NCBI GenBank assembly: GCA_046757025.1
Contig: JBHHXN010000001.1
Location: 59,185 to 123,184, forward strand
Direction of reading: 5' to 3'
Source of the DNA: a bacterium
GTDB taxonomy: Bacteria; Zhuqueibacterota; Zhuqueibacteria; Oceanimicrobiales; Oceanimicrobiaceae
Length of the DNA stretch: 64,000 bases
Shown piece by piece: positions 39,001 through 42,000 of the stretch; position 1 is the stretch's first letter, and the number at the start of each line of letters is the position of its first letter. The position numbers were made by a program.

Positions 39001-42000
39001 GTACGATGATGCTTTCATCATCATCACTTCTGATCACGGCGAGCTCAACGGCGAGCATCGTTCGTTCGGGCACAACACGGATTTATACAACGAGCTGATC
39101 TGGATTCCGTTGATCGTAAAATATCCTGGCAATTCGAATCAGGGATTTAGCGAGCAGACGGTACAGAATATCGATATTATGCCGGAATTGCTGCACAGTC
39201 TGGGCATCGAAATTCCCGAACAGGTGCAGGGCCAGCCGTTTGCGGAAGTGACGCACGATATCATCGCGGAACTGTTTGAACAGAAAAAGGCGCAGGCGTT
39301 ACTTTATCCCGAACGTTACTTTCGTGACTTGCGCGCCATTTTCAAAAACGTCGATGGCGATTCGCTAAAGTACATCTGGTCCTCCAACGGCAAGGATGAG
39401 CTTTACGACATGTCCTCGGATGTGAATGAGTCAATCAATCTGGTAGAACAAAAACCCGAAGTGGTTACGCATTTGGATAAATATTTAAGCGATTGGTTGA
39501 ATAGTTTTGAGCCGGTAAAAGCTGGTAAAGGTGAAATGAAATATACCAAAGAGATTGAAGAGCGGCTGCGCTCGCTGGGTTATTTGAAATGAATGTGAAA
39601 TTCTGCTGTTGGCTTTTGGCCGTTAGCATTTAGCAAAGATCAAGTTGCCAACAGCTAACAGCTAAAAGCCAACAGCCACGGCTCAATAGTTACAAATAAA
39701 CATTGAATAATTAAGAAAGAAATCCGACAAGATAAGCTATGAACTTGAAATCAATAAGCATTAAAATTCTATTTGCGATATTCTGGGGTTTGATCTTTTT
39801 CTTCACCCTGCGCTACATCGGTTTGCAGTGGGAATACGAAGGGCTGTTAACCCGAGGATTGATCGTGGGGGTTTCGTTTGTCAGCAGCAAGCATATTTGG
39901 TATTCCGTGGCCACGGTTTTGGCCAGTGGATTTGTCGCCTCGTCGTTAGTGCTTTTTATGGCCACGCTGTTTCGCCGAAATCGCACTGTCTGGTATCAGC
40001 GCGGGTTGCTGTTTTCCGGTGCCGCTGTTTTGATCATCGCGGTAGCTTTTGTCTGGAATCGTCACACAATCAGTTTGAGCAAGCTGCCGGTGGTCTATCG
40101 CTATTATGACAGCACTGGCCGGCTCATCGAAGCCGAAAAATATACCAAGAATCTCAAAAACGTCAACGTAATTCTGATTTCCATCGATACGTTGAATCCC
40201 GAGCATCTTGGCGCTTACGGTTATGCCAGGGACACCTCGCCCACCATCGACAGCCTGGCCGAAGCCGGCGTGTTTTTTGAGAATGCCTACAGCCATTCAC
40301 CCAAAACTTCCCCTTCGCACATGAGTCTGTTTACATCACTTTATCCCTCTGTGCACAAAATACGCAACTGGAATAAATACCAGGGTGGGTATGCCCTGGA
40401 TCATCGTGTTGTCACCCTGCCCGAAATAATGAAGAACGTGGGCTACCACACGGCGGCTTTTACCGGCGGTGGCAACGTTCAAAGTTCCATCGGATTTGGC
40501 CACGGCTTCGATGTTTATCACGACAATGATCAGGCCTGGGAAAACGCCTTTAGTTGGTTGGATGAAAACCACTCCTCGAAATTTTTTCTGTTCTTGCACA
40601 CCTTCAAGGTGCACTCGCCGTATCTGCCCCCTCCGCCTTACAACACCCTGTTTGATGCCGATTATCGGGGAGACATGCTGGATAGCGAAGAAGCGTTGAA
40701 AGCCTATTTTCACAACAAGTCGCACAACGGCACAGATTTTCCCGGCAGCCACCAGTTGTTTTGGGAGCTGGTTGATAAAAATGATCCGCGGGACATCGAA
40801 CACGTGGTGGCGCTGTACGATGGCGGCATTCGTTTTATGAATGACAAAATGATGGCAACCCTGATCAAAAAGCTGCGCCAATATCATTTGTTAGAGAATA
40901 CCTTGCTCATTTTTACTTCCGACCACGGTGAAGAATTTCTGCAGCACGGCGATTTTCTCCACAAAGAGCTGTACGATGAACACATTCAGGTGCCGTTGAT
41001 CATCAATTTCCCCAAGGCTGATCATTACCAGCAAAAAGTCGTGAAAAATCAGGTATCGCTGATCGATATTGTTCCCACCATTCTGGAGTATCTGTCATTG
41101 CCAGTACCGGTGATGATGCAGGGCAGCAATTTACTACAGATGATCGAGGGCAAAGAAATCGCTCTGCCTGTGTTTAGTGAGCGTATCGTGATATCGGATG
41201 TGCCGGACAAGAAAAAATCCATCCGAACCCTCGAGTGGAAATACATCTGGTGGCCCACGAAAAAAGTTGAAGAGCTGTATGATCTTGTCAACGATCCTGG
41301 CGAGCAAATCAACGTAGCGCAAAAGTACCCGGAAATCGTCGGCGGTTTGTACCGCCAGTTGCTCGACTGGATCAACGAAAATGAAAAAGTCGGTCAATCC
41401 TTTGGCACCTACACCCACAAATTTGATAAAGCCACCATCGAAAAACTCAAATCGCTTGGCTACATACGATAATCTTCCTCTGCGACTGAATGGATTCACT
41501 GGATTTTAAGAAGCTCATTTATGGATTAAAGCTGGGGTTGATTTCAGGGGCGGCATTGGGCCTCGTCCGGGCAGCCTTTTTTCTTGTCAATGAGAACTAT
41601 CAATTTGAAGAAATCAAATTTACAGCGGTCAACCTTTTTTGCAGCAGTGTCAATCAACTCACCCTTTTCGCTCTGCTTTTTTGTTTTGCTTTTGCGGTGT
41701 TGTGGCTGTTTTTTCGCAACCTGGAAAGTCTGGCTCTCTCTACCATCTTCACGGCCTTGATTTTTCTGCCTGCGGCTTATCTCCTGAATAAAAAATATTT
41801 ACCTGGAATCTTCGAAGTTAAAAGCTTGATCGGCAACGCGCTGCTTATTTTACTGGCGTTGATTACGACCTGGACCATGTTCCGACGCTGGCTAAAGGAT
41901 TGGCACTTTGTGAAGCGCGTTTGTCATAAATTTGTTTTGCTGGCAGCGCTGGCTTTGATCGGCGGCGTGAATCTCGCTTACCGGCTGCAGCCTGCTGCGG

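Follow-up and report, generated by a model that had tools for sequence, protein, structure and literature searches.

The 64-kb window analyzed here (the whole stretch of 64,000 nucleotides, from contig JBHHXN010000001.1 of a KSB1-like uncultured bacterium) carries an imperfect palindrome of 72 bp at positions 39605-39676, between two co-directional genes for sulfatase-fold paralogs. We found that this palindrome belongs to a known, unexplained class of intergenic heptameric repeats, with a new unit, GCTNTTR, and in a new lineage. We consider it probable that the palindrome is a repeat-class element that is read through by transcription and has no dedicated regulatory role. If the expression of its neighbors is affected at all, this probably follows incidentally from the RNA stem-loop, and neither a terminator nor an operator should be annotated here. 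Its parts, delimited by an inverted-repeat search and an RNA fold, are the following.

39605..39676, no strand assigned: the whole 72-bp imperfect palindrome, a hairpin made of heptamer arrays

39605..39636, + strand: the 5' arm, GCTGTTG GCTTTTG GCCGTTA GCATTTA GCAA, about 4.5 GCTNTTR units

39637..39644, no strand assigned: the 8-nt loop, AGATCAAG

39645..39676, + strand: the 3' arm, TTGC CAACAGC TAACAGC TAAAAGC CAACAGC, which is a GCTNTTR array in reverse complement

An earlier note on this DNA had described the heptamers GCTGTTG, GCTTTTG, GCCGTTA and GCATTTA from position 39605 as being followed by heptamers in reverse orientation, and the sequence agrees with this description. The inverted units read CAACAGC, TAACAGC, TAAAAGC and CAACAGC, ending at 39676. 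Read on the - strand, the 3' arm is GCTGTTG GCTTTTA GCTGTTA GCTGTTG GCAA. The same note gave outer arms of 23 nt (39605-39627 and 39654-39676), which indeed match at 21 of 23 positions when compared by hand, but the spacer of about 26 nt that it placed between them was too long, since the pairing continues inward and leaves a loop of 8 nt. The repeat tool returned arms of 32 nt each with 27 of the 32 positions (84%) complementary. Moreover, the 7-nt period was found independently by Tandem Repeats Finder (TRF) at 39647-39678, with 4.6 copies.

The RNA fold of the palindrome reached -42.6 kcal/mol on the + strand and -47.3 kcal/mol on the - strand (z about -7), and none of 200 dinucleotide shuffles folded equally well. 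The stem contains an uninterrupted outer helix of 16 bp within about 27 paired positions, and G-U pairs number one in the + strand fold and two in the - strand fold. Among 3195 overlapping 100-nt windows (mean -22.3, sd 6.4) the palindrome ranked ninth by fold, and of the hairpins in the 16 sizeable intergenic gaps of the stretch it is the most stable.

The arrays of the window, three in number, provide 13 clear units, in which positions 1, 5 and 6 are invariant, C2 is kept in 12 and T3 in 11. Positions 4 and 7 vary freely while the others are invariant or nearly so, and the unit was therefore written as GCTNTTR. The frequencies at the free positions imply that two in-register arrays of this unit, once inverted, are complementary to about 80% by their construction. 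No extra selection for pairing is therefore necessary to account for the 84% observed. In addition, the - strand folds slightly better than the mRNA-sense strand, so that selection on the RNA is not evident.

Heptamer arrays occupy two sites in the 64-kb window. The other site is listed here.

15844..15877, + strand: second array, one-armed, GCTATTG GCTATTC GCTTTTG GCTGTTG GGTATT (TRF period 7, 4.9 copies)

This array lies in a 481-nt gap (15748-16228) after the gene at 12523-15747, and both heptamer sites of the window are located in gaps between open reading frames (ORFs). A 16-mer taken from the arm had 9 matches in the window with up to 3 mismatches, against 1.1 expected, and the one-armed array was among the places matched. 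The earlier note had held that the absence of the motif elsewhere would speak against a regulatory role. The motif does recur, at 15844-15877 and in at least 120 further loci described below; this recurrence, however, is of the kind expected from a generic class of repeats, as opposed to a regulon. About 85 nt downstream of the one-armed array, the same gap also holds a perfect 16-nt palindrome (AAACCTTCCAGGTTTT / AAAACCTGGAAGGTTT, 15962-15994).

The pattern (GCTNTTN)x3-GCTNTT was scanned over one genome per species. The matches listed comprise at least 120 loci in Acidobacteriota, Bacteroidota, Cyanobacteriota, Planctomycetota, Gemmatimonadota, Desulfobacterota, Chloroflexota, lineages of the candidate phyla radiation (CPR), Proteobacteria and others. 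The arrays are also present in finished isolate genomes, such as the chromosome of Maribacter sp. R86514 and Cnuella takakiae, and GCTNTTA arrays were matched in Moorena, Scytonema and Xenococcaceae. The positional conservation seen across phyla is partly imposed by the search pattern, and the units flanking the pattern-matched cores break the pattern by construction and are unusable for judging positional variability.

The following statistics refer to a sample of 126 arrays among the matches listed. Different units are mixed in 90 of the 126 arrays, which are thus not pure repeats, and 62% of the arrays lie outside any ORF of at least 300 nt, compared with 9% of random 28-mers. Of the arrays between co-directional genes, 20 have the GCT strand as the sense strand and 24 as the antisense strand (p = 0.65), so there is no strand bias, and a strand-specific RNA signal with GCUNUUR as the sense form was rejected for the family. 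Convergent sites (17) were more frequent than divergent sites (9). An inverted array was found at most 200 nt away in about one-sixth of the arrays (23 of 126), and many of these inverted pairs fold to between -25 and -59 kcal/mol with the architecture seen in the window. The window element itself has at least three head-to-tail units, a non-coding site and an inverted pair in the preferred order of arms (see below), as expected for a member of the heptameric-repeat class.

Of 24 hairpin-type copies, 11 are located between co-directional genes, 5 at convergent sites and 3 at divergent sites. They often begin 0-12 nt past the upstream stop codon and leave few nucleotides before the next ORF (for example, in L129). 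Such gap-filling copies leave no room for a promoter and therefore must be read through. Because family members nearly fill co-directional gaps and the palindrome of the window has no U-tract, this copy is probably read through as well. In composite elements of metagenome contigs (L153 10342-10575, L155 133-327 and L157 8617-8827), heptamer arms surround a conserved 50-60-nt core, such as GGAAAAGCCCGCCGATCTCAG..CCGGTCGTCCAAACCCGTTTTTCC in L153, and the entire composite occurs as a tandem duplication. Unique cargo can therefore be flanked by heptamer arms.

We propose the following origin and behavior for the palindrome of the window. It consists of two short GCTNTTR arrays placed head-to-head (5'-GCTNTTR array, loop, YAANAGC array-3'), which this lineage would have gained, by insertion or expansion, within a permissive spacer of a conserved string of sulfatase-like and heparinase-like genes. 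Expansion of the slippage type may give rise to the arrays, which would then pair up in one preferred order. The element would be transcribed within the polycistronic message, where, by analogy with the hairpins of repetitive extragenic palindromic (REP) sequences, its stem of about 27 bp, 12 nt past the stop codon, may hinder 3'-5' exonucleases or be cut by RNase III. The ratio of the upstream to the downstream product would then shift modestly and incidentally.

The same junction was compared in five sets of relatives (58-61% protein identity) in which the order sulfatase-sulfatase-sulfatase-heparinase is kept. No heptamer array was found at this junction in the five sets, and therefore the heptamer palindrome is a lineage-specific gain. 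The spacer is 8 nt long in L001 and L002 (TAG GGCGGTCA ATG), and that of L123 has 72 nt and is unstructured (-9.6 kcal/mol). Since some lineages, two of them with the 8-nt spacer, are without a hairpin, the gene pair does not require one. Three relatives carry palindromes at the junction that are unrelated to the heptamer arrays. The spacer of L126 (99 nt, 6131-6229) contains the hairpin GTCATTTCC...GGAATGAC, that of L127 (124 nt, 6155-6278) the hairpin GTCATGCCCG...CGGGAATGAC, and that of L125 (387 nt, 6131-6517) a long element bounded by inverted repeats and folding to -115 kcal/mol. Either the junction is permissive for palindromic elements or it benefits from having one.

The insert of L125 has inverted repeats of about 30 nt (CAGCCACGGATTGACACTGATTGACACGGAT ... 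ATCCGTG..ATCAGTGTGAATCCGTGGCT) and an inner AT-rich hairpin, and it looks like a miniature inverted-repeat transposable element (MITE). Palindromes that start with GTCATTCC or GTCATGCC and end with GGAATGAC or GGGATGAC were seen at 16118-16197 and 33275-33375, in gaps of the window, and in the junctions of L126 and L127. They may be a REP-like family common to this lineage; strict GTCAT...ATGAC palindromes numbered 2 in the window, which is not above the 0-3 counted in shuffles.

One alternative is that the palindrome is a selected intercistronic RNA element setting the ratio of the paralogs, either as an exonuclease barrier for the upstream cistron or as an RNase III site uncoupling both. It retains the core of the earlier note's idea of an effect on relative expression, but leaves out termination. 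We regard this as unlikely, though less so than the other alternatives. REP hairpins stabilize upstream cistrons in E. coli operons, and the stem found here is very stable, with its uninterrupted 16-bp outer helix located 12 nt past the stop codon. The unrelated palindromes of L125, L126 and L127 at this junction, together with the finding that hairpin-type heptamer copies are commonest between co-directional genes, are consistent with such a role. On the other hand, the relatives with the 8-nt spacer and with the unstructured 72-nt spacer manage without a hairpin, and the better fold of the - strand (-47.3 against -42.6 kcal/mol) gives no sign of selection on the transcribed strand. The complementarity of the arms is about what two such arrays give by construction, and the family shows no sense or antisense bias.

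The earlier note had suggested that the palindrome may act as a terminator-attenuator setting the relative expression of the paralogs, or as an operator. Part of this stands, as a very stable stem-loop does lie between co-directional paralogs, will form in whatever transcript reads through it and could shift their relative expression. However, termination-attenuation or operator function as the purpose of the element is not borne out. The scans made no terminator or promoter call and there is no U-tract, the relatives that keep this gene order are without the element, the motif is not specific to this locus, other copies fill their gaps, and the family has no strand bias. For an operator, moreover, the setting is inappropriate: the palindrome lies between a stop and a start codon in a co-directional string with no promoter-like site, and no regulator gene was identified in a search that was not exhaustive.

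A Rho-independent terminator or attenuator stopping some of the transcripts between the paralogs seems quite improbable to us. A strong hairpin lies directly past the stop codon, which satisfies the G+C-rich stem-loop of such a terminator (-42.6 kcal/mol) with an unusually long stem, and the 62-nt gap to the next start codon could hold a weak internal promoter. Against this, on both the + strand (3' flank CACGGCTCAATAG) and the - strand (3' flank AGAATTTCACATT) the stem is without a U- or T-rich tract behind it, the consensus terminator scan made no call at the palindrome, and the consensus promoter scan found no promoter-like site in 39400-39900. Neither a leader peptide nor an evident alternative structure is present, and transcription has to pass through those copies of the family that take up almost all of a co-directional gap. 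Elsewhere in the window, a classical-looking bidirectional terminator follows the gene at 50872-53508 (53524-53572; A-rich 5' flank, 15-bp G+C-rich stem and the tail TTATTTCTT). As this hairpin has the classical stem and T-rich tail, the classical form of terminator appears to be used in this organism, and the palindrome is not of that form.

Known RNA families and mobile elements were also considered. No Rfam family matched in the window at gathering thresholds, and the best matches in E-value mode were to miRNA or sok hairpins, with 14-25 bits against thresholds of 59-100. A search for tRNA and tmRNA genes found none. The palindrome was rejected as a MITE, as its flanks (AAATTCT / CACGGCT) have no direct repeat and the element is all inverted repeat with no unique interior. 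It has no GTTRRRY core of an integron attC site and no spacer-repeat structure of a CRISPR array. Membership in the REP sequences and bacterial interspersed mosaic elements (BIMEs) was rejected because the arms begin with GCTG, are built of heptamer arrays and have no 5' tetranucleotide GT[AG]G.

The order of the arms in inverted pairs was also compared. Each of the two possible orders reads alike on either strand, so that an excess of one over the other carries meaning. In the genome sample, where a single arm was the trigger and the search was unbiased for order, the GCT-array came first in 14 loci and the opposite order occurred in none among the matches listed. Mirrored scans of viral contigs gave 4 loci with the GCT-array first and none with the opposite order. 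A metagenome scan made for the opposite order alone found it in 27 stretches from soil and sediment; most of these are genuine stand-alone palindromes, mostly in a TAACAGC/GCTGTTA dialect, and a few are junctions of adjacent elements. The order 5'-GCT-array...AGC-array-3' is thus strongly preferred, not exclusive.

This polarity could be understood if the palindrome were a protein-binding array of GCTNTTR sites, occupied by a duplex-DNA binder polymerizing at 7-bp spacing or by a single-strand binder taking one heptamer per monomer, with the arm order as the geometry of binding. The omega repressor of pSM19035 is a binder of the first kind, which polymerizes on heptads; it binds direct and convergent heptads and divergent ones poorly. 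Binding of one heptamer per cold-shock protein has been described in work cited in PMC4679880. The conservation of five of the seven positions with positions 4 and 7 free, the mixing of units in 90 of 126 arrays and the arm order (14:0 in the genome sample among the matches listed, 4:0 in the viral contigs) are in line with this explanation. We nevertheless consider it very unlikely, as there is no promoter context and the search for a regulator gene, which was not exhaustive, identified none; nor do the arrays show the strand bias to be expected if single-stranded RNA were bound. The opposite order exists in the 27 metagenome stretches, mostly as stand-alone palindromes, and the distribution over many phyla is without a known shared partner, the conservation being partly imposed by the search.

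A broader proposal would be that GCTNTTR arrays are cross-phylum iterated recognition sites with polarity, made or maintained by a sequence-specific factor (a heptamer-per-monomer binder or a polar copy mechanism), in which case the palindrome of the window would be a functional double array. It is suggested by the five conserved and two free positions, the mixed arrays and the near-exclusive head-to-head order, and we put it forward as a long shot. Finally, chance similarity or an assembly artefact is hardly credible: although the window comes from a metagenome-assembled genome and repeats can misassemble, none of 200 shuffles folds as well, the flanking genes are intact with the gene order of the five sets of relatives, and the array type is present in the finished isolate genomes of Maribacter sp. 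R86514 and Cnuella takakiae.

Some of our observations weigh against the explanation that we favor, that of a repeat-class element without a dedicated role. Palindromes are present at this junction in three independent lineages, which could reflect selection in favor of a hairpin between the cistrons and more than a permissive site. That G1, C2, T3, T5 and T6 are conserved and that one arm order is preferred would not be predicted by neutral slippage plus decay; both give a hint of a polar generating mechanism or of sequence-specific recognition. In addition, the dispersal of the unit across this genome rests on two arrays in 64 kb.

The palindrome is part of an intercistronic spacer whose features and flanking genes are as follows.

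37451..39592, + strand: upstream gene for a 713-aa membrane-anchored sulfatase-fold protein (PF00884), stop codon TGA

39593..39738, + strand: intercistronic spacer of 146 nt, composed of 12 nt, the hairpin and a 62-nt A-rich unstructured leader

39739..41472, + strand: downstream gene for the 577-aa paralog (PF00884), with its ATG at 39739

The hairpin starts 12 nt past the TGA of the 713-aa gene and ends 62 nt ahead of the ATG of the 577-aa gene. The gene string consists of a 622-aa PF00884 gene, the 713-aa gene, the 577-aa gene and then a heparinase II/III-like gene. The location between two paralogs, as described in the earlier note, was confirmed, as the flanking proteins are 29% identical (E = 3e-47) and both match Pfam Sulfatase PF00884. 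The designation LtaS-like that the note gave to them is too specific. The 713-aa protein scored 38.1 bits with the NCBIfam LtaS equivalog NF053595, against a cutoff of 970, and this model gave no match to the 577-aa or the 622-aa protein. Arylsulfatase models (PRK13759) reached 148-172 bits for the sulfatase-fold proteins, against a cutoff of 481. None of the curated NCBIfam models was passed by these proteins, and only Pfam Sulfatase PF00884 was passed.

Sulfatases have a Cys or Ser nucleophile in the motif Cys/Ser-x-P-x-R. In the alignment of the paralogs, Thr is found at the position of the sulfatase nucleophile (W-T-I-P-S-H and K-T-S-P-S-H). Judging from these residues, the presence of Thr for Cys/Ser in both paralogs suggests a phospho- or sulfo-transferase or a phosphodiesterase-like enzyme (EptA, LtaS type) over a formylglycine sulfatase. 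The nearest named relative of the 713-aa protein comes from candidate division KSB1 with 61% identity, none in the protein collection being closer, and the collection contains no protein at least 90% identical to it (cluster of 1 member).

All gene-like ORFs of at least 280 aa over the 64 kb are on the + strand, and the cumulative GC skew rises steadily. The window is an unusually long co-directional stretch with many polysaccharide-related genes. Another long palindrome (GTCATTGCGAGCG...GCGAAGCAATCTCA, loop, TGAGATTGCTTCG...CGCCTCGCAATGAC) lies at 24664-24747, between the genes 23099-24541 and 24825-26231. It folds to -42 to -45 kcal/mol, equal in stability to the heptamer hairpin and unrelated to it in sequence, and we take it to resemble a repeat common in environmental genomes. 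A tandem duplication of 21 nt (ATTAAAAAGGTCAACTCCGGG, 1.9 copies) was seen at 59423-59462, and a similar sequence, AAAAGTCAACTTCCGGGC, is found at 33255-33275 beside the GTCATTCCCCGC palindrome in the gap 33091-33495. This may be another dispersed motif.

The palindrome matters little for this gene pair, being in all likelihood a repeat that settled in a spacer tolerant of it. Of wider interest is the recurrence of a single degenerate unit, GCTNTTR, in many phyla, an uncultured KSB1-like lineage included. What remains of particular interest is the pattern of conserved and free positions in the unit and the pairing order kept across phyla, both of which are unexplained by plain slippage.

Among known systems, the palindrome resembles Rho-independent terminators in having a stable stem-loop shortly past a stop codon. 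Unlike them, it has no U-tract, its stem of about 27 bp is far longer, and a co-directional paralog starts 62 nt further on. The REP sequences and BIMEs of enterobacteria, which are associated with a RAYT transposase, are imperfect palindromes in intercistronic or 3' positions that are transcribed with the operon and can stabilize the upstream mRNA in E. coli operons. The palindrome of the window is likewise imperfect and lies in a permissive intergenic site, but its arms are tandem heptamers and not a unique sequence of 35-40 nt, and it has no GTAG-type 5' tetranucleotide.

Short tandemly repeated repetitive (STRR) sequences are a second point of comparison. Mazel et al. reportedly described cyanobacterial STRR heptamers in 1990, such as CCCCAGT, TTGGTCA and CAACAGT. 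The last of these, STRR3, is one base away from the CAACAGC of the palindrome. Like STRR, the arrays of the window are tandem heptanucleotides in non-coding DNA; STRR occur in many copies per genome, in the intergenic regions of operons. Unlike STRR, which were reported from heterocystous cyanobacteria, they come from another phylum and have another unit, so that membership is by architecture only and a common origin is not demonstrable. A report on STRR of Calothrix is among the works cited in PMC4692102.

Among the long simple repeats of bacteria, heptameric ones are over-represented most strongly, and no function has been accepted for them (PMC4679880, PMC4692102). As cited in PMC4679880, Mrazek et al. 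(2007) found that in most prokaryotic genomes heptanucleotides are the commonest kind of long simple repeat, and proposed polymerase slippage. A literature search on the GCTGTTG/CAACAGC unit returned only unrelated papers. MacGregor reported in 2015 TAACTGA arrays in marine Beggiatoaceae, Cyanobacteria and Bacteroidetes, and raised cold-shock proteins as possible heptamer binders (PMC4679880). The TAACTGA arrays are also intergenic (2-6 units, some of them "split" by related 7-mers) and have a patchy cross-phylum distribution. However, TAACTGA sets are mostly sense and directly upstream of start codons, with one inverted set, whereas GCTNTTR arrays have no sense bias, lie nearer to gene ends and often form inverted pairs.

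The closest likeness is to the heptamers of Xanthomonas and Nostoc. Rehm et al. described in 2015 the units GGGAATC in Xanthomonas and GGGGA(C/T)T in Nostoc/Anabaena, 89-93% of which are intergenic and nearer to the upstream ORF (PMC4692102). These repeats show no strand preference, are more frequent at convergent than at divergent sites, occur inside operons and are mostly transcribed, with unknown function; 70-75 pairs per genome "with convergent orientation" can form stem-loops (PMC4692102). The GCTNTTR unit differs in that it is unrelated to these units, is not G-rich, so that a G-quadruplex is impossible, and has two freely variable positions. Its host is a KSB1-like uncultured bacterium, with two arrays seen in 64 kb compared with about 180 per Xanthomonas genome. 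In the other respects GCTNTTR is alike, occurring in short tandem arrays with a non-coding bias, no strand bias, an excess of convergent sites and one preferred pairing order. The habits of GCTNTTR, including the preferred pairing order, equal those of the unrelated Xanthomonas and Nostoc heptamers, and this shared behavior of unrelated units points to a common mechanism. Taken together, the behavior of GCTNTTR agrees point by point with the description of the Xanthomonas and Nostoc repeats.

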